From Candidatus Krumholzibacteriia bacterium (lineage in GTDB: Bacteria; Krumholzibacteriota; Krumholzibacteriia; WVZY01), in contig JAZGDW010000200.1 in NCBI GenBank assembly GCA_036478295.1, positions 1 through 32,482 on the forward strand: DNA of 32,482 nucleotides, read 5' to 3'. A program made the translations under genes and the position numbers. This document shows, piece by piece, positions 2,768-32,482 of the stretch. Within the stretch, counting starts at the first letter, position 1. The number at the start of each line of letters is the position of its first letter. The notes below the pieces were generated by a model. It did not search any database. It was not told the origin of the DNA and was given only the letters and a program-made list of their open reading frames with translations.

Positions 2768-2917
2768 GGGGCTAAGCGTAAACGAGTGGATACGCGTGCA
2801 CCAGCCGCTCGGGGCGGTCGACTACAGCTGTCGTCATGAACACGCTGCGGCGCTCATCCACTGCCCATACCAGACACGCGTGTTACAACGGCCATCCAGC
2901 TACGGAGATTGAGGGCC

Positions 2918-4558
2918 ATGAAGGCTTCTGACCTGTTTGTTAAAGCACTCGAAGCCGAAGGCGTCGAATACGTATTCGGCGTGCCTGGGGAGGAAAACCT
3001 CGACCTGCTGGAATCGCTCCGCGATTCCGGGATCAAACTAATCCTGACCCGCCACGAGCAGGCGGCGGGTTTCATGGCGGCGACCTACGGGCGCTTCACC
3101 GGCAAGGCGGGTGTGTGTCTGTCGACCCTCGGTCCCGGTGCCACCAACCTGGTGACGGCGGCAGCCTATGCCCAGCTCGGGGCGATGCCGATGCTCATGA
3201 TCACCGGCCAGAAGCCGGTGAAACACAGCAAGCAGGGGCAGTTTCAGATTGTCAACGTGGTCGACATGATGAAGCCCCTGACCAAGTACACACACCAGAT
3301 CGTCAGCGGTGACAACATTCCGTCACGGATTCGCGAAGCCTTCCGCGTGATGGAGCGCGAACGGCCCGGCGCGGCCCACCTCGAGCTGCCCGAAGACGTC
3401 GCCCGTGAGGAATGCAGCGCGCCTATCATTCCGAAGAGCCACTCTCGCCGGCCCGTCGCCGAAGAAAAAGCGGTGGCCCGGGCCATCGAAACCATAGAAG
3501 CTGCCAAACATCCATTGCTCCTGATCGGTGCGGGCGCGAACCGTAAGATGACGTGCCGTGCACTGCGGGGATTCATCGACAAGACGGGGATCCCTTTCTT
3601 CAGTACGCAGATGGGTAAAGGTGTCGTCGACGAGCGCGACCCGCTTTTTCTCGGCAACGCGGCGCTGTCTTCCGGAGATTTCCTGCACCGGGCGATCGAT
3701 CACGCTGACGTAATCATCAACGCCGGACACGACGTGGTCGAGAAACCGCCGTTTCTGATGGAGCCGGGAGGGACGACGGTCATCCATATTAATTTCGAAT
3801 CCGCCTCGGTCGACGCGGTTTACTTTCCCCAGGTGTCCGCCGTGGGAGACATCGCCAACACCATCTGGCAGATTACGGAGCGTATCCACAAACAGGGTTC
3901 TTGGGACTTTACGTATTTCATGAAGGTTCGCGAGCACGTGGAGGCGCACCTGCTCGAAGGCGCCGACGATCCGCGCTTTCCCATGTACCCGCAGCGTATC
4001 GTCGCCGACGTGCGGCGGGTCATGCCGTCGGACGGCATCATCGCCCTGGACAACGGTGTGTACAAGATATGGTTCGCGCGCAACTACAAGGCGCACCAGA
4101 CCAACACGGTGATTCTCGACAACGCCCTCGCCACCATGGGAGCGGGCCTGGCGTCGGCAATGGCGGCGCACCTCGTGCGCCCCGGGCGGCGGGTCATGGC
4201 CGTCTGCGGTGACGGTGGCTTCATGATGAATTCACAGGAGCTCGAAACAGCGGTCAGGCTGAAGATGGACCTGCTGGTCCTCATATTGCGGGACAACGCC
4301 TACGGGATGATCAAATGGAAGCAGGCCGGCATGGAGCTTCCCGCTTTTGGCCTCGACTACGGCAATCCCGACTTCGTGAAGTACGCGGAGAGTTACGGCG
4401 CGAGGGGTCATCGAATCGAAAAGTCCGAGGACCTGCTGCCGACCATGGAGAAGTGCTTCGACGAGCCAGGTGTCCACGTGATCGACGTGCCTGTCGACTA
4501 TTCCGACAACGACCGCATCCTCAACCGTGAAATCCAGGAGAAGAGCAAATTGGTGTGA
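2918..4558 (+). CDS. ThDP-dependent enzyme, acetolactate synthase large-subunit-like family
   Basis: FGVPGEEN, TRHEQAAGFMA, STLGPGATN, ThDP motif GDGGF...RDNAYGMI; ATG at 2918 after GAGG. Confidence 0.9.
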   Translation: MKASDLFVKALEAEGVEYVFGVPGEENLDLLESLRDSGIKLILTRHEQAAGFMAATYGRFTGKAGVCLSTLGPGATNLVTAAAYAQLGAMPMLMITGQKPVKHSKQGQFQIVNVVDMMKPLTKYTHQIVSGDNIPSRIREAFRVMERERPGAAHLELPEDVAREECSAPIIPKSHSRRPVAEEKAVARAIETIEAAKHPLLLIGAGANRKMTCRALRGFIDKTGIPFFSTQMGKGVVDERDPLFLGNAALSSGDFLHRAIDHADVIINAGHDVVEKPPFLMEPGGTTVIHINFESASVDAVYFPQVSAVGDIANTIWQITERIHKQGSWDFTYFMKVREHVEAHLLEGADDPRFPMYPQRIVADVRRVMPSDGIIALDNGVYKIWFARNYKAHQTNTVILDNALATMGAGLASAMAAHLVRPGRRVMAVCGDGGFMMNSQELETAVRLKMDLLVLILRDNAYGMIKWKQAGMELPAFGLDYGNPDFVKYAESYGARGHRIEKSEDLLPTMEKCFDEPGVHVIDVPVDYSDNDRILNREIQEKSKLV

Positions 4559-4638
4559 CGGGTTACCATGTGTGGCGGGATTCCCACTCGCCGCCCGGTT
4601 GTCCGCGTTGCGCGTGTTCGTGAGTGAGGGGAGCCGTA

Positions 4639-6078
4639 ATGACGAAGAAATTCTCGCTGAAAATCCCGGGGGCGAAAACCAGTGACGGTGTTCTGCGGGT
4701 AACGGCGCCGTTCGACGGCAAAGCGATCGGTGAGATAGTGGCCGCCGACGCCACGGCGGTGGACGTTGCGTTGCAAAACGCCGCCCGTGTCTTCGGCGAC
4801 CGCGACGGGTGGCTGGAGCCTGCCGAACGCATGGCAATACTGGGGAAAGCCGCCGGTATCATGAGTGGCCGCGCCGAGGAACTGGCCGTGGAAGCGGCGC
4901 GCGAAGGCGGCAAGCCGCTCATCGATTCTCGCGTGGAGGTCGCGCGCGCCATCGACGGCGTCAAGAACTGCATTGAAGTCATGAGGACGGAATCGGGCAG
5001 GGAAATCCCAATGAACTTGAACGCCGCCTCCCAAGGCCGCCTGGCCGTGACGCGCAGGGCGCCCATTGGAGTGGTGGTGGCGGTGAGCGCCTTCAACCAC
5101 CCGCTAAACCTGATCGTGCACCAGGTGTGTCCGGCCGTGGCGGTCGGTTGTCCGGTGATTGTCAAACCGGCCGAGGATACACCGCTGTCGTGTTTCCGCA
5201 TGGTGGAAATACTCCACGAAGCGGGGCTGCCGGAGGAATGGTGCCAGGCGCTGGTGGTCAACGACCTGGACAACGCCACGCGGTTGGCGACCGACCCGCG
5301 CGTCGCTTTTTTCTCGTTTATCGGCAGTGCCCGCGTCGGGTGGATGCTGCGCTCCAGACTGTCGCCGGGAACACGCTGCGCCCTGGAACACGGAGGTGCC
5401 GCGCCGGTCATAATCGCCGGGGACGCGGATTTGGATGCGGCCGTGCCGCTGCTCACCAAGGGCGGTTTCTACCACGCCGGCCAGGTGTGCGTGTCGGTGC
5501 AACGTGTGTACGCAGCCAGCGCCATAGCTGGTGAGGTGGCGGTTCGCCTGGCGACGGCGGCGGGCAAGCTGACTGTGGGAGATCCCACGCTCGAAAACAC
5601 GGACGTCGGTCCGCTCATCCGGCACGCCGAAGTGGACCGCGTCGAACAATGGGTGAAAGAAGCGGTGGCCGGGGGTGGTGAGCTCGTTAGGGGCGGCAAA
5701 CGCATTTCAGACTCGTGTTACGAATGTACCGTGCTCACGAACCCGCCCGAAGACGTGAACATCAGCCGGTTCGAGATCTTTGGTCCCGTCGTGTGCGTAT
5801 ACTCGTACGACGATGTGGACGAGGCCATCAGCCGTGCCAACTCGTTGCCCTTCGCCTTTCAGGCCGCCGTTTTCACACGGGATCTCGATCTGGCGATGCG
5901 TGCCTACACACGACTCGACGCCAGCGCGGTGATGATCAACGACCACACGGCGTTCCGGGTGGACTGGATGCCATTCGCCGGTCTTCGCGAGTCGGGGTTG
6001 GGGGTGGGCGGCATCCCGTATACCATGCGGGACATGCAGATCGAAAAACTGATGGTGCTGCGGTCCGGCGGACTCTAA
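4639..6078 (+). CDS. NAD(P)-dependent aldehyde dehydrogenase
   Basis: AFNHPLNL, VKPA, FIGSARVG, LEHGG (catalytic Glu), GQVCVSVQR (catalytic Cys), EIFGPV, PFAGLRESGLG. Confidence 0.92.
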   Translation: MTKKFSLKIPGAKTSDGVLRVTAPFDGKAIGEIVAADATAVDVALQNAARVFGDRDGWLEPAERMAILGKAAGIMSGRAEELAVEAAREGGKPLIDSRVEVARAIDGVKNCIEVMRTESGREIPMNLNAASQGRLAVTRRAPIGVVVAVSAFNHPLNLIVHQVCPAVAVGCPVIVKPAEDTPLSCFRMVEILHEAGLPEEWCQALVVNDLDNATRLATDPRVAFFSFIGSARVGWMLRSRLSPGTRCALEHGGAAPVIIAGDADLDAAVPLLTKGGFYHAGQVCVSVQRVYAASAIAGEVAVRLATAAGKLTVGDPTLENTDVGPLIRHAEVDRVEQWVKEAVAGGGELVRGGKRISDSCYECTVLTNPPEDVNISRFEIFGPVVCVYSYDDVDEAISRANSLPFAFQAAVFTRDLDLAMRAYTRLDASAVMINDHTAFRVDWMPFAGLRESGLGVGGIPYTMRDMQIEKLMVLRSGGL

Positions 6079-6092
6079 GAATTGCGGTTTGC

Positions 6093-6113
6093 GACGTAGC
6101 GGACTTAAAAACC
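6093..6113 (+). repeat. Left att-like core, direct repeat of 11808-11828
   Basis: GACGTAGCGGACTTAAAAACC vs GACGCAGCGGACTTAAAAACC: 20/21 identical, last 16 bp exact. Confidence 0.85.
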
Positions 6114-6241
6114 CGAAATCACGACTCCAACCACCTCGTTGTAATCACTCCAGTTACATCCTAATTACTTTCAAATAATTGTGTTACACAGATTCTGCTT
6201 TCGCCGGGTCTCGTCCAATTCTATGGCATCTTGGCCGCGTA

Positions 6242-6263
6242 CGTGGCACAATTTTCGCACACC
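6242..6263 (+). repeat. Tandem arm-type-like sites, left end
   Basis: CGTGGCACAAT-TTTCGCACACC: GCACA at 6246 and 6257, 11-bp period, same orientation as the pair at 11714-11735. Confidence 0.55.
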
Positions 6264-8579
6264 ATGATCGGCCAAACCATATCCCACTACAAGATCCTCT
6301 CCAAACTCGGCGAAGGCGGCATGGGGGTGGTCTACAAAGCTTCCGATACGAAGCTCAAGCGCACCGTGGCACTCAAGTTCCTGTCTCCCCATCTCCTCGC
6401 GAACGACAAAGACAAACAACGTTTCCTGCACGAGGCCCAGGCAGCCGCCGGTCTCAACCACCCCAATATCTGCACGGTTCACGAGATCCACGAAGCCGAT
6501 GGGCACACCTTTATGGTGATGGAGCACATCGAGGGGACGAGCCTGAGGGACAAGATAGAAAGCGGTCCGATGGCGATCGATGACGCGCTGGAGACAGCAC
6601 TCCAGGTGGCGAAGGGGCTCTCCAAGGCGCACGGCCAGGGGATCGTGCACCGGGACATCAAGCCGGGGAACGTACTGCTGACAGAAGACGGTGATGCCAA
6701 GATCGTGGATTTCGGTCTGGCGAAGCTGGCGACACAAACCAGGCTGACCAAGACGGGGGCCACGGTGGGAACCGTGATGTACATGTCACCGGAGCAGGCG
6801 AAGGGCGAAGGGGTGGACCACCGGACCGATGTGTGGTCGCTGGGGGTCGTGCTCTACGAGATGTTGGCCGGCAGGTTGCCGTTTCGGGGAGACATAGAGC
6901 AGGCAGTGGTCTACTCGATCATGAACCAGGACCCGGATCCGGTGACATCGACACGTAAGGACGTACCGATAGCGCTGGAGGATATCATTGAGAAGGCGCT
7001 TTCCAAGGATCCGGAGAAGCGGTACGAGAGTGTGGATGCGTTCCTCGCAGCTCTCGAGGAACAACGGGACCACCGGGTATTGGGGATCACGGAGCGACGG
7101 TTCACGTTTGTGCGGAAGCTTCGGCGCCGGAAGCGGCTAACGGCGGGAGTGGCAGCGGTGGTAGTTGTGGCTCTGGCGGCTGTTCTAATCCAGACGCTCC
7201 ACACGCGCAGCATGGAGATCGACTCGGTGGCGGTGTTGCCGTTTGTGAACCTTTCGGGCGACGAGGGCCAGGAGTACTTTAGTGACGGCATGACCGAGGC
7301 ACTGATCAACGAGCTCGGACAGATCGGTGCGCTCACGGTGATCTCGCGCACATCGGTGATGCAGTTCAAGGGCACCGACAAACCGCTGCCGGAAATCGCC
7401 CGGGAGCTCAATGTCGACGCAATCATCGAAGCGTCAGTAACGAGAGACGGCGAAAAGGTGCGGATCACCGCGCAGTTGATCCGCGCCAACCCCGAGCGGC
7501 AGATGTGGGCGGAAAGCTACACGCGGGACGCCGGCGACTTGCTTTCACTTCACGCCGAAGTTGCGCAGGCGATTGCGGAGCGCATAGAGGTGGCGGTGAC
7601 AGCGCGGGAGCAGGAGCGCCTCACGCACGTTCGAACCGTAGATCCACAAGCTTACGATGCCTATCTCAAGGGCCGTTACTACTCGTATGTGTGGGCGGAG
7701 GAAGAGATGAAGAAGGGGCTCAGGTACTATGTGGAGGCGATCGAGATCGACCCAACCTACGCGCAGGCGTACGCCGGGCTCGCCGACTGTTACAGCACTC
7801 TCGGTTTGTTTGGATTTATGCCGGGCGACGAAGCGATGCCGAAGGCGAGGGCGGCGGCGAAGAAGGCGGTGGAACTCGAGCCATCACTGGGGATAGCCCA
7901 CGCTATGCTTGGCTGGGTCAAGTTCGCGGGCGATTGCGACTGGTACGGCCCCGATGCAGATTTCCGACGTGCCGTCGAGTTGAGCCCTAACAATGCGGAC
8001 GTTCATACGTGGTATGACCAATATCTTACGACTACCGGACGATTTGACGAGGCGATCGTCCATAGCAAACGAGCAGTTGAACTCGACCCCCTGACGCCAA
8101 CGACGGCATTGCATCTCGCCTGGGTCTACGAATATGCCGGACGATACGACGACGCAATCGAGGTAACGAAGATGGCCATTGAGATGAAACCGAGCGATCC
8201 TTATGGCCAACTGCAATTAGCGGGGGGGTACCTTGGCAAAGGGATGCGTGCGGAGGCAGTTGCCGCTGTTGACTCGGCGCTTGCCCTCTCGACGGATCCA
8301 AACGATCAGGTGATGCTGGTCTGGGCTGGCTATGGCTATGGGCTTTTCGGTCGGACGGATGAGGCTGAGGAAATACTGGACAAACTGGTCGCGCCCATCC
8401 GTAAGGCCATGGTTTGCAAAGGCCTGGGGCGAACCGACGAGATGTTCGAATGGCTGGAGAAAGCGTACGAAAACCCCTCGGGTTGTATGATGGACCTGGT
8501 GATCGACTTCGGAGAGCATCGCGACGACCCGCGCTACATCGATCTGTGTCGAAGAATCGGCATTCCCCTCGATGAGTAG
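6264..8579 (+). CDS. Hanks-type Ser/Thr protein kinase with TM helix, TolB-N-like domain and TPR repeats
   Basis: GEGGMGVVY, VALK, HRDIKPGN, DFGLA, YMSPEQ, DVWSLG; basic stretch then hydrophobic helix; SVAVLPFVNLSGD...YFSDGMTE; several TPR-like repeats. Confidence 0.93.
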   Translation: MIGQTISHYKILSKLGEGGMGVVYKASDTKLKRTVALKFLSPHLLANDKDKQRFLHEAQAAAGLNHPNICTVHEIHEADGHTFMVMEHIEGTSLRDKIESGPMAIDDALETALQVAKGLSKAHGQGIVHRDIKPGNVLLTEDGDAKIVDFGLAKLATQTRLTKTGATVGTVMYMSPEQAKGEGVDHRTDVWSLGVVLYEMLAGRLPFRGDIEQAVVYSIMNQDPDPVTSTRKDVPIALEDIIEKALSKDPEKRYESVDAFLAALEEQRDHRVLGITERRFTFVRKLRRRKRLTAGVAAVVVVALAAVLIQTLHTRSMEIDSVAVLPFVNLSGDEGQEYFSDGMTEALINELGQIGALTVISRTSVMQFKGTDKPLPEIARELNVDAIIEASVTRDGEKVRITAQLIRANPERQMWAESYTRDAGDLLSLHAEVAQAIAERIEVAVTAREQERLTHVRTVDPQAYDAYLKGRYYSYVWAEEEMKKGLRYYVEAIEIDPTYAQAYAGLADCYSTLGLFGFMPGDEAMPKARAAAKKAVELEPSLGIAHAMLGWVKFAGDCDWYGPDADFRRAVELSPNNADVHTWYDQYLTTTGRFDEAIVHSKRAVELDPLTPTTALHLAWVYEYAGRYDDAIEVTKMAIEMKPSDPYGQLQLAGGYLGKGMRAEAVAAVDSALALSTDPNDQVMLVWAGYGYGLFGRTDEAEEILDKLVAPIRKAMVCKGLGRTDEMFEWLEKAYENPSGCMMDLVIDFGEHRDDPRYIDLCRRIGIPLDE

Positions 8580-8597
8580 ATCTGGCCTTGATATCTC

Positions 8598-11288
8598 CTA
8601 AAAGCCGGTCTCAATACCCACGCGAACAACCATCGGTGGCTGCCAGGCTATCGGCTGCATGAAAAACGGATTTTCCCCCGATAACGGTACCGGATTGCCC
8701 TGGTCATCGACTTTGAAATAACGAACCTGGTCAAAAGCGACCGGCTCCTTCTGGCTGAAAAGATGAAAGATGTCCACGAGAAGTCGTGGCGTAGAACGTC
8801 GTTCGCCAGATGCCCTCGACGCCAGGTCATACGAGAACCTGAGATTGAGATCCCATATCGACGATGTGCGGCCGAACGTTCCTCGCGGCCGCTGGTGCAC
8901 GAGCCAGAACCCCTGGAGCAGGCCAAACTCGCTCAGCGGCGTGCCGCTTTGCCAGGTGAAAAACCCGCCGGCACTTAAGCCCCACCTCGTAGCGTGGGAG
9001 CCATAGATCTTGAACACATGAGGCCGGTCGTTCGGTAACCGTCCTTCGCTGTTTCTCAGCATAGCGGGAAAGTCGAAAGCGGGTCCCGCATTTGCAATCG
9101 AGTTTCTGGAATCGGTATCGAATACCCCCACGTAGTTGCCATAGCTTCTGGAGAGGACGTATGAGGCGCCCAGGCGGTACCGTTCTACGAAGGCTTTTCC
9201 GACCGTCAATTCAAGTGCGGAATAGCGACGAATGGGATCCGGCAGGAAGTCCAGATCCCCCCGCCCCGGATTTCCCCTTTGGAAAAAGCCTGCGGGAACC
9301 CACGCGTCGTCTACGACTTCGCGTTGCTCGCGGTGGATTCCACTGATGCTGGCCTTCCACGTTTCGCCGATGTGGCGTTCGTAGCCCAATATAAATTCGT
9401 CAAAGTGCTGGCCCTTGAGATTCTTGGCAGCCTTCTCGTCGCGGCCGGTTAAAACAAATTGTGTGTCACCCAGGGCGAACGGGTTCGCTCTCGGGTCCTC
9501 TGTATACGTGACGAAGTCCTGGTAAAACTCTGAAAGGAATCTACCGGCGCGCGTGGGAATCTGTTCGTAAAAGCGACCGTACGAGCCAAAGATCTTCTGG
9601 GAACCCAGCTCCCCAATTTGGTAGACCAGACCAACACGGGGTTGGTATTGACCATTGATTTGCTCTGCGAGGTCGCCTTGTGAGTCGTACGAGTAATACC
9701 CATCCCACCTAACCCCCGCATTGAGTCGTAGTCGCTCCGCGGCCCGCCAGGAATCCTGCACAAACACCGAGGGCACGCGCACATGCAACTCTACGTCTTG
9801 CAACAGCGTGTTTGTGCCGAAGCTCGAGTCGGGGAACCTTTCAATCCAACCGGGTACGCCGTCCGGGGTGATCCAGTTCCATTCCGTATCCAGCTTGTTA
9901 TCTTCGTACTCCAAACCGGCTTTGAGCCTGTGGTTTTTCAAATGCCCGGTTCCGACAACGCGACCGGCCCACCGCACGCTGTGGTTATCGAAAACGTTCT
10001 GGTACCCTCCCGACCATTCGCCTGTCAACCAATCCGTAAAGAGAGGCTCATTCCGTCCCGTTTCTGTGGCCGGCTCCACTTTTTCCCTCGTATCGAAACG
10101 GTACACGTTGCCTTCCAGCAGGAATTTGTCGCTGAAGAGGTGCTGCCCATTCAGGGCAACCGTCACACCGCCCGTTGTCCATTTGCTGAGAAACGGGTCC
10201 GCATTGGCCAGACTGATCGGCTGAAGGCCAAACAGGTCTACTCCGATGCGGTCGTTCTGGGATGGATCGCCAAAAGCCACCAGTTCCAGATTGGTTTTCT
10301 TTGTGGCCTGCCAGGTAAGCTTGCTGGCGAACTGGTGGGTGATGAGCTCATCGCGGTGAAACCCAACCCCCGGTATCTCGAGGTCCTCGAACTGAACCGT
10401 GGGATCATATGCTGCATAGTACCAGAGCTTGTCACCCGCGATCGGACCGGAGAGCGACACGCCAATATCATAGCGTGCAAAGTCCTCCAATTTCAATTCA
10501 ATAGGGCCGCGCTGGGTATTTGCGGTCAATGTGTTGTTCGAAAAAAAGGCAAACCCGCTGCCCCTGAATTCGTTGCTACCCGATTGTGTGATAACATCGA
10601 TGATCCCGCCATGCGATCTGCCGTACTCAGCCTGATATCCGCCGCTGATCAGTCTGATCTCTTTGATGAAATTCTGCGGCAACTGCGTACTCGTCTTCGC
10701 AAGATAAGGATCGGTGACGTTGACTCCCTGGATATAATAGGCGTTTTCGGATCCAGTGCTTCCCGCAACATTCGTGCCGTCGCCGAGGAAGCTTGTGTTG
10801 GCCTGCGGAAGGTAGACGACGGCGGAGCGGTAGTCCCTCAGGGTGGGCAGGGTTTCGAGATCTTTGGCCGTGATGTGGCCGCCCAGCTCGGTGACGGTCA
10901 CATCGATCGGCAGCTTGCGTTCGGTGACGACGATTTCGGGAGCTTCGTACACTGTGGGTGTTACCCGGATCTTACCCAACGTGACTGTCTTCCCCAGGCG
11001 AACAACGACGTTCTGGATTGTCATCTGCTGATAACTGACGTGGTAGACCTTGACGGTGTAGGTTCCGGGCGGAAGTCTGAACACGCCAAAGTACCCGTCC
11101 GTGGTAGACATGACACCACGGCTCCCCTGCAGACTCGGGCCGGAGACGACAACGTTGGCAAACGCAACTGGATCGCCCCTGTTGTCTCGGATCCGACCTT
11201 CGATATCTCCTGTAATCTCCTGGGCAAAGATGGCCTGTGCGGGGAACCCCACGAGAAGTACGAACGAAATGACGACAAATGTACGCAC
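8598..11288 (-). CDS. TonB-dependent receptor (Oar-like, N-terminal carboxypeptidase-regulatory-like domain)
   Basis: Signal peptide ending AIFA-Q; GGYQAEYGRSHGGIIDVITQSGSNEFRG plug motif; amphipathic beta strands; C-terminal Phe (RVGIETGF); GTG start after GAGGA. Confidence 0.9.
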   Translation of the reverse strand: MRTFVVISFVLLVGFPAQAIFAQEITGDIEGRIRDNRGDPVAFANVVVSGPSLQGSRGVMSTTDGYFGVFRLPPGTYTVKVYHVSYQQMTIQNVVVRLGKTVTLGKIRVTPTVYEAPEIVVTERKLPIDVTVTELGGHITAKDLETLPTLRDYRSAVVYLPQANTSFLGDGTNVAGSTGSENAYYIQGVNVTDPYLAKTSTQLPQNFIKEIRLISGGYQAEYGRSHGGIIDVITQSGSNEFRGSGFAFFSNNTLTANTQRGPIELKLEDFARYDIGVSLSGPIAGDKLWYYAAYDPTVQFEDLEIPGVGFHRDELITHQFASKLTWQATKKTNLELVAFGDPSQNDRIGVDLFGLQPISLANADPFLSKWTTGGVTVALNGQHLFSDKFLLEGNVYRFDTREKVEPATETGRNEPLFTDWLTGEWSGGYQNVFDNHSVRWAGRVVGTGHLKNHRLKAGLEYEDNKLDTEWNWITPDGVPGWIERFPDSSFGTNTLLQDVELHVRVPSVFVQDSWRAAERLRLNAGVRWDGYYSYDSQGDLAEQINGQYQPRVGLVYQIGELGSQKIFGSYGRFYEQIPTRAGRFLSEFYQDFVTYTEDPRANPFALGDTQFVLTGRDEKAAKNLKGQHFDEFILGYERHIGETWKASISGIHREQREVVDDAWVPAGFFQRGNPGRGDLDFLPDPIRRYSALELTVGKAFVERYRLGASYVLSRSYGNYVGVFDTDSRNSIANAGPAFDFPAMLRNSEGRLPNDRPHVFKIYGSHATRWGLSAGGFFTWQSGTPLSEFGLLQGFWLVHQRPRGTFGRTSSIWDLNLRFSYDLASRASGERRSTPRLLVDIFHLFSQKEPVAFDQVRYFKVDDQGNPVPLSGENPFFMQPIAWQPPMVVRVGIETGF

Positions 11289-11432
11289 CCTATATCCTCG
11301 CGTCGGCCTAGCTTCGGAGATGTGGTGCGAGAAATGCGGGGCAATCGGTGTGCGTTCCGAAAGCGAGGCATGAATCGGATCGTGTGTGTTCACCGTGGCC
11401 GCTAGAAACCACGGGGTTAGTTTGACGCAAAC

Positions 11433-11475
11433 ATTGTATCAGACAATACTCTGGGCACAAGTTGATATTTATCAA
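11433..11475 (-). promoter_or_regulatory. FNR/CRP-family box plus extended -10 (class II-type promoter) for the TonB-dependent receptor
   Basis: Perfect TTGAT-ATTT-ATCAA at 11462-11475; minus-strand TG-A-TACAAT at 11441-11433; box centre about 42 bp from the predicted start site. Confidence 0.7.
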
Positions 11476-11713
11476 GACAGCAGTTGATGGGAGGAAGTTG
11501 TCCCTTCCAATTATACCGTCCACATTGGTATTATTGCACTTCGCGGATGCTTCTCAAAAAACCTGTATTACTGAGAAGTCGTGGTGACTGCTTGTCAGAC
11601 GGTGCCCAGCAGGCGTGAGGTTTAACGCCGTCAGGGCACGGCCGGGAAGCCCTGGCCAGATATTGTCTCAGGCCAGGTATCATAGCCTACAAGGAGCCGA
11701 GCGGGTGCAAACG

Positions 11714-11735
11714 ATTAGCACAATATTAGCACAGT
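11714..11735 (+). repeat. Tandem arm-type-like sites, right end
   Basis: ATTAGCACAAT-ATTAGCACAGT, 11-bp tandem repeat, 10/11 identical. Confidence 0.65.
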
Positions 11736-11768
11736 TGCCCCGACGACATATCGAGCGGGTTTGGTAAC

Positions 11769-11774
11769 TATAAC
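11769..11774 (+). promoter_or_regulatory. -10 element upstream of the tRNA fragment
   Basis: TATAAC 13 bp before tRNA position 1; no good -35. Confidence 0.45.
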
Positions 11775-11787
11775 AATGACAACAGGC

Positions 11788-11825
11788 GCCGGAGTGGCGG
11801 AATGGTAGACGCAGCGGACTTAAAA
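11788..11825 (+). pseudogene. 5' half of tRNA-Leu(UAA), truncated after the anticodon loop
   Basis: GCCGGAG-TG-GCGGAATGGTAGACGC-A-GCGGA-CTTAAAA gives the acceptor 5' strand, Leu-type D arm, anticodon stem 5' strand and loop (TAA at 11821-11823); the expected TCCGC, T arm and acceptor 3' strand are absent. Confidence 0.85.
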
Positions 11826-11853
11826 ACCACCGGCCGCCGAACAAGGCATTGCC

Positions 11854-13770
11854 ATGGGCAAACAGAAGATAGACGAAAAATCCGATCGCCAGCAGTTGCG
11901 GGCGTTTACCAAGGCGCTGCTCGAAGACGTGCAGGCGATCGAGCGCATGCTTGCCGATGGTCTGATCGAATCGGGCGTTCGCCGGATCGGCGCAGAGCAG
12001 GAGATGTTCCTCGTGGACCGCGCCATGCATCCAGCCATGACCGCGCTCGACGTCCTCGAGAGGCTCGACCACCCGCAGTTCGCCACTGAGCTGGGCCTTT
12101 TCAATCTCGAAGTCAACCTCAGCCCCCAGGATTTCGGCGGTGACTGCCTGTGGCGCATGGAGCAGGAGCTCGAGGGCTTGCTGTCGCAGGCCCGCCGGGC
12201 GGCAAAGAGCGTGGAGAGCCGCGTGCTCATGACCGGCATCCTGCCGACGATAAAACAGAAAGACCTCACCCTGGAAGCGATGACGCCCAGCCCGCGCTAC
12301 CTGCAGCTGAACCGCACGATGAGCGAGCACCGCGGCGGTGATTTCAGCATGCTGATCAAGGGGCTCGACGAACTGGGCGTCACTCACGACAACGTCATGT
12401 TCGAAGCCTGCAACACGAGTTTTCAGATTCACTTCCAGGTCAGCGCGGACGAGTTTGCCAACCTGTACAACCTCGCCCAGGCGGTAACGGCGCCGGTCCT
12501 GGCCGCGGCGGTCAATTCCCCCGTCTTCCTGCAGCACCGGCTGTGGCACGAAACGCGCGTGGCGCTCTTTCAACAATCGCTGGATACACGCTCGGAGACC
12601 CACCAGGCCCGTAAGGCGCCGCCGCGCGTCGTGTTCGGTGACAGGTGGGTCAAGGATTCCGTACTCGAGATCTTTCGCGAAGACATCGCCCGCTTCCGCG
12701 TGCTGATCGCGGCCGAGCCGGAGGAGTCGCCGCTGGAGCTGCTCGACCGCGGGGACATTCCGCCGTTGTCGGCGCTCTGCCTGCACAACGGCACCGTGTA
12801 CCGTTGGAATCGTCCCTGCTACGGCATTCGTGACGGGCGGGCGCACCTGCGCATCGAGCACCGGGCGCTGCCGGCGGGGCCGACGGTGGTCGACGAAATG
12901 GCCAACGCCGCGTTTTTCTTCGGACTCATGACGGTGCTCGGCGACAAGTACGACGACATCACAGAGGTCATGACGTTCGATGACGCCAAGAGCAATTTTC
13001 TCCTCGCGGCGCGTTATGGTTTGCAGGCGAGACTGCGCTGGGTCGATGGCAAGGCGATGTCGGCGGAAAAACTGATCCTCAAGGAGCTGCTGCCACTTGC
13101 TCGCAAGGGGCTCCGCTCGCGCAAGATCCGCTCGCGTGACGTCGACCGCTACCTGGGCATTATTGAACGGCGGGTCAAGAGCGGCCAGACCGGGACGCAG
13201 TGGGCGCTGGACTCACTGGCCGCTATGGATCCCGCGAGCCGCACCGAAGAGCGCTACAGGGCTCTGACGGCCTGTATGTACGAGCGCAACCTTGCCGGCA
13301 AACCGGTGCACGAGTGGAAACTGGCGCAGCTCGATGAAGGCATCGACTGGCGCGACAGCTACCGCACTGTGGAACAGGTCATGGCGACGGATCTTTTCAC
13401 GGTACATCCAGAGGATCTTGTCGACCTGGCGGCCAACCTCATGGACTGGGAGCATATCCGCCACGTGCCGGTCGAGGACAACGAGGGAAAACTGGTTGGG
13501 TTGATATCGCACCGCCAGTTGCTGCGGCTTGTCGGGCGCGGGATGAAAACGGGTGCGGAGCCGGTGGCGGTTCGCGAGCTCATGACAAGCGACCCTCTGA
13601 CCATCGGACCGCAGGCGGGATCGCTCGAAGCGATAGAAATCATGCGAAAGAACCGGGTGAGCTGTTTGCCGGTGGTCAAGGATGACAACAAACTGGTGGG
13701 TATCGTGACCGAGGTTGACTTTATCAATGCCGCAGCGAGACTGCTGGAAGAACAACTGCGAGAATCATGA
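11854..13770 (+). CDS. Glutamate--cysteine ligase family 2 (GCS2-like) carboxylate-amine ligase fused to a C-terminal CBS pair
   Basis: IGAEQEMFLVD, ELGLFNLEVN, GILPT, SFQIHFQV, NSP, LRIEHRALPAGPT; CBS repeats IRHVPVED...LVGLIS and VSCLPVV...LVGIVTEVD. Confidence 0.85.
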   Translation: MGKQKIDEKSDRQQLRAFTKALLEDVQAIERMLADGLIESGVRRIGAEQEMFLVDRAMHPAMTALDVLERLDHPQFATELGLFNLEVNLSPQDFGGDCLWRMEQELEGLLSQARRAAKSVESRVLMTGILPTIKQKDLTLEAMTPSPRYLQLNRTMSEHRGGDFSMLIKGLDELGVTHDNVMFEACNTSFQIHFQVSADEFANLYNLAQAVTAPVLAAAVNSPVFLQHRLWHETRVALFQQSLDTRSETHQARKAPPRVVFGDRWVKDSVLEIFREDIARFRVLIAAEPEESPLELLDRGDIPPLSALCLHNGTVYRWNRPCYGIRDGRAHLRIEHRALPAGPTVVDEMANAAFFFGLMTVLGDKYDDITEVMTFDDAKSNFLLAARYGLQARLRWVDGKAMSAEKLILKELLPLARKGLRSRKIRSRDVDRYLGIIERRVKSGQTGTQWALDSLAAMDPASRTEERYRALTACMYERNLAGKPVHEWKLAQLDEGIDWRDSYRTVEQVMATDLFTVHPEDLVDLAANLMDWEHIRHVPVEDNEGKLVGLISHRQLLRLVGRGMKTGAEPVAVRELMTSDPLTIGPQAGSLEAIEIMRKNRVSCLPVVKDDNKLVGIVTEVDFINAAARLLEEQLRES

Positions 13771-13848
13771 CAATGAGTAGCAATCCTACACCGAAACACG
13801 AAGCGCGAGACAATGAGCGGTGATCCTACACAGAAACACGAAGCGCAA
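13769..13848 (+). repeat. 40-bp imperfect tandem duplication covering the start of the deacylase gene
   Basis: GACAATGAGTAGCAATCCTACACCGAAACACGAAGCGCGA / GACAATGAGCGGTGATCCTACACAGAAACACGAAGCGCAA (34/40). Confidence 0.9.
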
Positions 13849-14985
13849 GAGGTCGACGGGCTGCCCGGTGGGCGGGTCATCGGCCGCTACGGCGAACCCG
13901 ACGGGCCGCTGCTCATCGTCGTCGCCGGCCTGCACGGCAACGAGCCCGCCGGCGTCGAGGCTTGCCGGCGCCTGTTCGAGCGGCTCGGGAGTGAGCGATC
14001 GGCCATGCAAGGGCGTGCGGTCGCTTTTATCGGCAACCTCACGGCGTTGGAGCGAGAGGAGCGCTTTGTCGACCGCGACCTCAACCGCATGTGGTCCACC
14101 GAGGACCTGGCGGTGCTGGGGGGCGATTCCTCTCACCACACCGTCGAGCAACGCGAGCAGCGCGAGCTGATCGCATCCATGGAATCCGAGTTGGACAATG
14201 GTCGACACCCGGTCATCGTCATCGATCTGCATTCGACGTCCGCCTTCGGCGCCCCCTTCTGCATTATCAGCGACACGCTGCAAAACCGGCGTATCGCGTT
14301 TCCATGGTCGGTGCCCGTTATTTTGGGTCTGGAGGAGGCGATACACGGCACCATCCAGGAATATTTTGGCGCGCGTGGGTACATTACCGCGGCGGTCGAA
14401 GGCGGGCAGCACAGGGATCCGGAAACCGCGGACCGTCTGGAATCGGTGCTGTGGATCACGCTGGTCACCGCCGGCTTCTTGCGTGAGTCGGATGTCCCCG
14501 GCCTGAGTGCGCACCGGGATTGCCTGCGGCGGGTCTCCCGCGGTCTGCCCTCTGTGGTAGAGGTCTTTTATCGTCACGGGCTGGTGGCGAACAACGGGTT
14601 CGAGATGCAGCCGGGCTTTCGTAACTTCTCCACTGTGCGCAGGGGCCAGCGAGTGGCCCGTGACGGTGACGGTGACATCGTGGCAAGAGCGAACGGCTTG
14701 CTGATCCTCCCCAACTACCAGAAATCCGGAAACGACGGTTTTTTTCTGGGCCGGAGAGTGCCGCGTTTCTGGCTTCAGCTCTCGACACTGGTCAGAAAGG
14801 CGCGTATGGACCGCCTGCTGACCCTCCTTCCCGGCGTGCAGCGCCAGCCATCTGCCCACGGAGACGTGGTCGTGAAGGCGGGGGGACGCCTCGCTCCCCG
14901 GATTCTCCACCTCATGGGGTATCAAAAGCGGGCGTCAGATGGGCGAAATCGGGTCTATCGCCGCCGGCCGGAGGGTCCGGCGTAG
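13813..14985 (+). CDS. Succinylglutamate desuccinylase/aspartoacylase (AstE/AspA, M14-like Zn) family hydrolase
   Basis: AGLHGNEPAG, RFVDRDLNR, IDLHSTS, VEGGQH motifs. Confidence 0.88.
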   Translation: MSGDPTQKHEAQEVDGLPGGRVIGRYGEPDGPLLIVVAGLHGNEPAGVEACRRLFERLGSERSAMQGRAVAFIGNLTALEREERFVDRDLNRMWSTEDLAVLGGDSSHHTVEQREQRELIASMESELDNGRHPVIVIDLHSTSAFGAPFCIISDTLQNRRIAFPWSVPVILGLEEAIHGTIQEYFGARGYITAAVEGGQHRDPETADRLESVLWITLVTAGFLRESDVPGLSAHRDCLRRVSRGLPSVVEVFYRHGLVANNGFEMQPGFRNFSTVRRGQRVARDGDGDIVARANGLLILPNYQKSGNDGFFLGRRVPRFWLQLSTLVRKARMDRLLTLLPGVQRQPSAHGDVVVKAGGRLAPRILHLMGYQKRASDGRNRVYRRRPEGPA

Positions 14986-20679: not shown

Positions 20680-20693
20680 CGAGGGGCCGCGGG

Positions 20694-20954
20694 GGCGGTG
20701 CGTTGTTGGATTGCCTCCTGCCCCGCGCTCCGCTTTGCCGGCGGTACGTTGTTGGATTGCCTCCGTCGCCGTGCTCCACTTCGCTCGGCTACCCGCCTGC
20801 GGCGGGTGATCCTCGCTCGTTCCCGCAACGGCTCCGTCACCAACCCAACAACGTACCGCCGGCTGGTCCCGCGACGGGTTCGTCAAAATTCCGAAAGCGC
20901 ACTGCCGACTGGTCCCGCGACGGGGCCGTCAACAATCCGACAGCGCACCGCCGA
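20694..20954. repeat. REP/MITE-like cluster with nested inverted repeats and three 46-bp tandem units
   Basis: Perfect 19-bp IR 20737-20755/20845-20863; outer 20-bp IR 20694-20713/20933-20952 (2 mismatches); tandem units at 20817, 20863 and 20909. Confidence 0.88.
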
Positions 20955-23813: not shown

Positions 23814-24000
23814 CCGATGCGGGTCCTGTCAGGGAACAGCCCGTCCGTGCTCGCAGGCTGCGCGCGACCGGGCGCCCGTTCGCTGCCACCCGCATCGGGT
23901 CCGTTAACAATCCGCCAGTGCACCGCACGACCCGCATCGGGTCCGTCAACAATCCAACAACGGACCGCCGAATCGCCCGTTCGCTGCCACCCGCATCGGG
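23814..24000. repeat. Second cluster of the same repeat family
   Basis: 27-bp exact direct repeat 23873-23899/23974-24000; units CCCGCATCGGGTCCGT(T/C)AACAATCC resemble those at 20817-20954; inverted CCGATGCGGGT at 23814-23824. Confidence 0.85.
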
Positions 24001-24014
24001 CCCTTCTGCGGTTG

Positions 24015-32328: not shown

Positions 32329-32377
32329 GTTGCAGCTGGCGGCTCCTTGGCGGTGCACGGTGGGACCGTTTCGTTGC

Positions 32378-32482
32378 CCGCGCTCCGCTTGCAGCGTCGG
32401 GCGGTGCGTTGTTGGATTGCCTCCTTCGCCGTGCTCCACTTCGCTCGGCTTCCCGCCTGCGGCGGGTGATCCTCACTCGTTC
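32378..32482. repeat. Third copy of the repeat family, cut by the window end
   Basis: 32400-32482 matches 20740-20822 at 79/83; preceded by the same CCCGCGCTCCGCTT motif seen near 20722. Confidence 0.92.

Follow-up and report, generated by a model that had tools for sequence, protein, structure and literature searches.

The window analysed here is a 32,482-nucleotide stretch, contig JAZGDW010000200.1 (C114), of the Candidatus Krumholzibacteriia genome GCA_036478295.1 (G000), a metagenome-assembled genome (MAG) that is 91% complete, with about 5% contamination and 316 contigs; other C numbers are contigs of this genome unless prefixed by another. An aldehyde dehydrogenase (ALDH) gene (4702..6078, + strand; PF00171) and a GCS2-CBS gene (11854..13770, + strand; CBS match, GCS2+CBS clusters at a score of 0.99) are separated by an insert at 6104–11825, which measures 5,715 bp between two 7-bp anticodon loops and has a G+C content of 56.6%, against 62–63% in the flanks. 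We regard this as a real att-bounded, integrase-less insertion of the rare 5′-restoring type at an off-target site. An earlier note, made from the sequence alone, had described a 21-bp repeat bracketing exactly two cargo genes, and both were recovered: the copies start at 6093 and 11808, differ by one mismatch, and form the sole 21-mer pair in the window with at most one mismatch, besides six spacings from tandem or REP-like repeats.

The first cargo gene (6264..8579, + strand) is intact and encodes a 771-aa protein with Ser/Thr kinase (PF00069, catalytic motifs present) and TPR domains; the left arm site ends 3 bp ahead of its start codon. The second (8598..11393, − strand) encodes a TonB-dependent receptor with a carboxypeptidase-regulatory-like domain (PF00593, PF25183, PF13620), whose true start is probably about 35 codons later. 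Domain matches confirmed both assignments. The claim that no recombinase is encoded also held, since neither tblastn with 23 arm-linked integrases nor a profile built from them found a tyrosine integrase or its remnant in the element, which is without integration or transfer genes. There are 29 kinase-domain matches in the genome, the best paralogues of the kinase-TPR gene standing at 38–42%. Its best match in G001, a genome of the same genus, is 49% and lies on a different contig, against 86% and 88% for the ALDH and GCS2-CBS orthologues. The receptor was not found in G001, G007 or G009 at E ≤ 1e-40; among the 40 relatives compared, matches of 42–49% occur in four more distant genomes.

The repeats match tRNA-Leu(UAA). 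The right end (attR) holds nucleotides 1–38 of this tRNA (11788..11825, + strand), 38/38 identical to the intact gene at G000:C245:10247–10335 and ending in the 7-bp loop at 11819–11825, whereas the left end holds just nucleotides 21–38, with one mismatch (17/18). With up to three mismatches the 18-bp core occurs at eight places genome-wide, all of them tRNA-Leu genes, tRNA halves or the element's left end. On the host side of the left junction, 10 of 11 positions (6093..6103, + strand; hereafter B) equal the 5′ side of the anticodon stem, and they are followed by the 7-bp loop (6104..6110, + strand), the presumed left crossover; on the right, 5 of 8 positions (11826..11833, + strand; B′) resemble the 3′ side of the stem. 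A candidate decayed tRNA 3′ half in the right flank was rejected (2706/5000 shuffles as good). The window is without any tRNA gene, Rfam gave no match at E ≤ 1 in 5500–12500, and neither junction folds (z 1.8 and 0.2). At all junctions tRNA identity ends at the loop, an A-run and three further shared bases blurring the exact point. These limits suggest a crossover within the anticodon loop, and joining the two loops gives a 60-bp ALDH–GCS2 intergenic region, as the note had proposed.

Among the 40 relatives, four carried the GCS2-CBS gene and four the ALDH gene at the thresholds used, and three (G001, G007 and G009) carried both on one contig. G001 is colinear with the window at 2917–6077 and 11882–14578 (78–80% nucleotide identity) and lacks exactly the insert. 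The gap between the two genes is 31 bp in G001 and about 140 bp in G007, and holds one other gene in G009; cargo, arms and core, including B, are absent from all three junctions. Relatives with the cargo in place and no repeats, which would have spoken against the note's proposal, were not seen, and its expected empty junction was. Given the empty junctions, the missing receptor and the distant kinase match, the insert was acquired within the G000 lineage, at a site that is not the ancestral place of the tRNA. There is no adjacent element, the flanks being host genes syntenic with G001. The rebuilt 60-bp site aligns with the G001 gap no better than shuffled sequences (2720/3000 align as well), so the proposed anticodon-loop crossover, which agrees with where tRNA identity ends, cannot be confirmed base by base from relatives whose junctions carry no copy of the repeat. 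Possible att remnants at the G007 and G009 junctions were dismissed, the lowest of 20 tests giving 32 and 46 of 1000 shuffles, which is not significant.

Sister elements with equal ends exist elsewhere in the genome. Sister left ends were found at C245:4680 and C44:2176 and right ends at C163:2152 and C245:10272, giving homologous sets of three left ends (C114, C44, C245) and three right ends (C114, C163, C245). The right end at C245:10272 completes the genome's only intact tRNA-Leu(UAA), and the sister to which it belongs (C245:4655–10335) is bounded by the full tRNA and its fragment. This complete sister (C245:4680–10284) encodes an insertion sequence (IS) transposase, a radical SAM/SPASM protein and two unknown genes, and no tyrosine integrase. 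Cargo thus differs between members: the window copy has kinase-TPR and receptor genes, the C245 copy the IS and radical SAM/SPASM genes, and the C44–C163 element, which contains an assembly gap, a kinase-TPR gene 31% alike over the aligned part. At C163:70–75 an in-frame stop falls at the kinase-domain end of that gene, which is either a pseudogene or an assembly error.

Both window ends are homologous modules of 170–190 bp, which go beyond short motifs. Each contains a GCACA-N6-GCACA pair (at 6246 and 11718) in identical orientation, as noted earlier; of 13 such pairs in the genome, six lie at ends of this element family. The left module (attL arm; 6111..6263, + strand) has its pair at 6246–6261, 142 bp from the loop, and is decayed. 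From loop to arm it is identical to the C44 and C245 left ends at 78/132 and 82/132 positions (0/1000 shuffles reach either score), against 99/131 between those two, and similarity drops to about 50% just past the arm. The arm matches at 15–16/20 in the window copy and 19/20 in the sisters; this decay suggests that the copy may no longer excise. The note had also pointed to an IHF site within this module. The 13-mer concerned (6169..6181, + strand) has one mismatch to the consensus, and its presence is no more than chance would give (1087 such sites in the genome, 0.31 per kb); it is present in one of three left ends and neither sister. The genome encodes three IHF/HU-family genes.

The right ends are far better preserved. 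A 35-bp arm block with a TTAGCACA pair (11712..11746, + strand; GCACA at 11718, 101 bp from the loop) is invariant in all three (35/35), against 64/103 neighbouring columns (62%; rough P = 6 × 10−8, for a block picked after the fact). Pairwise, they agree at 32/32 positions at the arm, 30–35/42 in the spacer and 37/37 in the tRNA half. Arm-to-loop distances are fixed at 101 bp on the right and 141–142 bp on the left (three ends each), the layout of a lambda-type att site in which paired, putatively integrase-binding arm sites flank a core. Contigs from runs X1 and X2, from two studies, carry right-end variants (window 11710–11805) that differ in the spacer, among the matches listed.

Before the arm block lies a shared non-coding segment (11644..11711, + strand), 47–54/67 identical among the three right ends, which all lose similarity at about one point, falling to about 45–50% further out. 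The segment carries a −10-like TAnnAT hexamer (11678–11683) that varies just at consensus-tolerant positions and may be a promoter, as judged from sequence; in a promoter scan, neither att end showed a strict sigma-70 site. We also considered that the segment might be a decayed integrase tail. That candidate was discarded, the apparent match coming from arm-encoded residues and vanishing without them, and the segment has no integrase C-terminus signal (64–121/300 shuffles score as well). A 40-bp stretch at C55:1983–2022, upstream of a gene that we take to be greA-like, resembles the segment (E = 3e-5).

These ends bear on whether the structure is genuine at all. A chance repeat, or a mis-assembly at tRNA-half repeats, could be suspected in a fragmented MAG with about 5% contamination. 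We hold this to be highly improbable, as both ends lie within a single 60-bp gap whose flanking genes are adjacent in relatives, both are homologous to independent copies with fixed geometry, and the left repeat (18 bp, one mismatch) is too short to cause a join.

The sisters appear to lie in an array at the tRNA gene. A further tRNA 5′ half occurs at C223:1825–1858, with a decayed one near C223:1000 (by eye), and a duplicate of the tRNA 3′ part at C245:13381–13442. Together with heavy-metal efflux genes running off contig ends, these suggest that C223, C44, C163 and C245 form one stack at the tRNA; the joins are inferred, only C55 and C223 overlapping. Other units in these contigs were observed alongside. 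Heavy-metal efflux (OMF-MFP-RND) genes with GTCACA-pair arms lie between tRNA halves at C163:2165–4453 and C245:1–4692; the efflux operon also follows a 5′ half in G001:C39, so this unit predates the G000/G001 split. Behind tRNA-Leu(UAA), at C245:10335–13442 (L001; L numbers label matched loci or contigs in our scans), sits a 3′-restoring integrase-less element with Ig-like-domain cargo and inverted GCACA/GACACA pairs at both ends. A partial copy of the 3′ part of the greA-like gene precedes the first tRNA half (C223:760–960). In three genomes, belonging to two families, a DUF5674 gene pair stands behind a tRNA-Leu(UAA) 5′ half (L004:1075–1751; L029/L209, in G026; L218, in G004), with no integrase in the loci examined.

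We scanned for the arm motif and recovered at least 123 stretches in metagenome contigs and 16 in viral contigs. Contexts were classed as tRNA-proximal or distal by a T-loop pattern, about 60 being left unclassed. Among the matches listed, an integrase open reading frame (ORF) ends on the proximal arm in 21 of 22 distinct contexts with at least 250 bp upstream, and in 29 distal-arm contexts with at least 1 kb downstream no integrase ORF starts within 500 bp behind the arm. Because integrase genes end on the motif so regularly, the GCACA pair, which the earlier note had likened to arm-type sites, is very likely such a site and belongs to a widespread family of tyrosine integrases, and the right end of the window element is very likely where that family's integrase gene normally ends; the pre-arm segment occupies this usual place. 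The listed arm-linked elements are mostly 3′-restoring at tRNA-Ala, -Lys, -Arg and -Thr. Two genomes, L048 (titled Zixiibacteriota) and L053, carry tRNA-Leu(UAA) in the 5′ configuration together with an integrase and a related arm, at an arm spacing of 102–103 bp. The L048 protein, a tyrosine recombinase, scores under the cut-offs for Xer and for integron integrases (73 versus 265 bits for the latter).

Our preferred reading, to which we give a probability of roughly 0.55, is that the window holds a non-autonomous element that was moved in trans, landed off target and now has a decaying left end. The note's cassette moved in trans stands as the best reading of the ends, the sisters and the missing recombinase; the movement is what we infer, and no excision was seen. 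The family attP would combine the tRNA-Leu(UAA) 5′ half with a promoter-like segment and two arm sites in direct repeat, which flank the anticodon loop at distances of about 100 and 140 bp, so that insertion rebuilds the tRNA from its 5′ side. The tyrosine integrase would have been lost once in the family and the arms kept under selection; the shared 67-bp segment and invariant arm fit one such loss followed by divergence under selection for integrase binding. Members with different cargo would then be excised and integrated in trans by the cognate integrase of a helper, an autonomous relative that is now lost or unassembled. Most members would have piled up at the tRNA, the window copy having gone off target, into the ALDH–GCS2 gap. 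The right end of this copy faces outward and may drive the GCS2 operon downstream of it, whose GCS2-CBS gene starts 28 bp behind the tRNA half; we propose that such an outward promoter would let the insertion be tolerated and account for the good preservation of the right end against the decay of the left arm.

Several observations weigh against movement in trans to an off-target site. The host side equals the tRNA at 10/11 positions plus the full loop, yet the relatives' junctions have no such site, so a plain off-target event would require conversion of the loop. B occurs with at most one mismatch at 136 genomic sites, and all eight with 6–7/7 loop matches are tRNA-derived or element ends. 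It would seem that either a fortuitous site was used and its loop converted, or an older tRNA-derived scar was already present. A rival reading takes the insert for a relocated piece of the tRNA array, or for an insertion into such a scar. The left core and the bases before it would then be an old decayed tRNA 5′ half, which either travelled with the DNA, through illegitimate recombination or an aberrant excision, or stayed behind from an earlier element, and the two ends might stem from different array members. The 17/18 core match, which has no chance equivalent in the genome, speaks for such an origin, as do the much greater divergence of the left end and a weak alignment of the 14 bp before the core with tRNA nucleotides 5–18 (263/5000 shuffles, borderline). 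We nevertheless consider it quite unlikely, as the right boundary coincides exactly with the end of the loop and neither flanking gene is disrupted, the outcome that site-specific recombination gives, and as six non-tRNA sites in the genome pair B (at most one mismatch) with B′ (at least 5/8), which makes a fortuitous target with a converted loop feasible.

The remaining adverse points concern the helper and the fate of the integrase. The note had proposed looking for a tyrosine integrase beside the intact tRNA-Leu(UAA); none lies there, and none with matching arms was found in the 91%-complete assembly. No cognate integrase occurs among the eight tyrosine (PF00589) and four serine (PF07508) recombinase matches of G000, the TTAGCACA pair standing beside none of them. 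Two candidates were set aside: the integrase on C233 comes with a repeat of another kind and a different tRNA fragment, and the C85 and C183 integrase fragments have AAGTGTAAGA pairs at tRNA-Thr (by eye). The latter (C85:1–520, C183:1–420) are near-identical integrase 3′ ends with tRNA-Thr(CGT) and a fragment of it, a stack cut by contig ends. The pattern of arm plus tRNA half is confined to G000 among the 208 genomes of the phylum set (which includes G000), and the search among kin thus gave no helper; when as many as two mismatches are allowed, the arm motif occurs once each in 10 of the 207 others, no more than its reversed control. In viral scans, the L048 integrase gave 13 pattern matches, none of which was confirmed, and seven right-end matches included a tRNA half in none (by eye); four left-type matches were phage attP sites of a distant 3′-type family. 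A genome-collection scan gave eight matches, three at tRNA-Leu genes and five by chance (by eye), and plasmid blastn with the right end gave none.

Moreover, the window left arm carries 4 mismatches in 20, and gene conversion could also yield the arm invariance. Sequencing reads gave no circle, and no skip from 6110 to 11826, among the joints listed in four runs, so the circle-junction reads looked for were not obtained; this is a weak test on low-share contigs (14 runs matched, all at a share of at most 0.14). Integrase position varies as well: that of the public element L114 ends 76 bp before the arm, and that of the phage family L261–L264 (about 25% identity) starts behind an arm that lies 140 bp from the loop, so the integrase could have been lost independently. 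These last are phage-like contigs with a distant integrase, and their attP includes a GCACA pair and the 3′ half of tRNA-Leu(UAA), starting at the anticodon loop.

The decayed left arm, the missing helper and the variable integrase position all fit ordinary decay, in which an autonomous island at a secondary site lost its integrase by deletion, the tRNA islands did so independently, and none moved afterwards. The formation of cis-mobilisable elements (CIMEs, in the sense of Pavlovic/Guedon) of this kind and their tandem accretion have been described (PMC5704250, PMC3146451). We find such decay unlikely: no element retains an integrase remnant, the three right ends lose similarity at one point, and the arm block is invariant amid about 25% divergence.

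More tentatively, the family might exemplify a passenger class of lambda-type integrases, namely short cargo cassettes with one common integrase-free end, mobile through a helper in trans, restoring the tRNA 5′ half with their own promoter and spreading paralogues such as the kinase-TPR genes round the chromosome. If so, passengers could land inside operons and leave downstream genes unsilenced. The window copy would be a dispersal event, and L059 and L122 a second family. In these metagenome contigs a common integrase-less proximal end with other cargo (by eye) stands at tRNA-Ala, twice in L059. The loci concerned (L059:950–1160 and 10900–11240, and L122) share an end module at tRNA-Ala(GGC) that is about 190 bp long, with additional copies of the arm.

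Elsewhere in the window, we observed a REP-like family of 41–46-bp direct and inverted repeats in intergenic clusters (20693–20954, 23873–24003 and 32348–32482), and a 40-bp tandem duplication (13769–13848) at the start region of an AstE-like gene.

Islands without an integrase are commonly taken for dead remnants, or for riders on a neighbouring element, and they escape island finders that demand one. With a lone off-target copy, sisters that have a replaced end and an invariant arm, the family offers a clean case in which to test mobilisation in trans, and the element supplies a defined att pair together with candidate integrases of the L048 and L053 type. In the open literature we found no described trans-mobilised integrase-less tRNA cassette at a secondary site, subscription journals lying largely outside this coverage.

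CIMEs have no integration or transfer genes, keep attL and attR, are mobilised with an adjacent element and accrete at tRNA genes (PMC5704250). The window element likewise has no integration or transfer genes and keeps both att sites, and its sisters are stacked in tandem at a tRNA gene. Unlike a CIME as portrayed there, the window copy stands alone at a non-tRNA site, and with no neighbouring element it falls outside mobilisation in cis; three members here, moreover, share one integrase-less end with unrelated cargo. By analogy, it may work like a CIME without a cis partner. Among Islander islands, those of the 5′-fragment type are a minority (159/3919), and the finder requires an integrase (PMC4383910). 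Those islands resemble the window element in the anticodon-centred site and the restored tRNA, and differ from it in their integrase and in the full tRNA at one of their ends, both of which it lacks. Tandem ssrA islands of Dehalococcoides (PMC3146451) and tycheposon islands (bioRxiv 10.1101/2020.12.28.424599) are stacks split by partial t(m)RNA copies, in which some elements likewise lack integration modules. In the accessible parts of both accounts, integrase-less members are treated as decayed or cis-mobilised, and none is off-target or has a shared replacement end. Integron gene cassettes are small units without a recombinase, which hold one or two genes, vary in cargo and are moved by an enzyme encoded elsewhere. 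The window element is such a small, variable-cargo unit too, but it has two long arm-bearing ends and a tRNA half in place of an attC hairpin and IntI. Known systems thus cover most of its features, and the lone off-target copy is its distinctive part.

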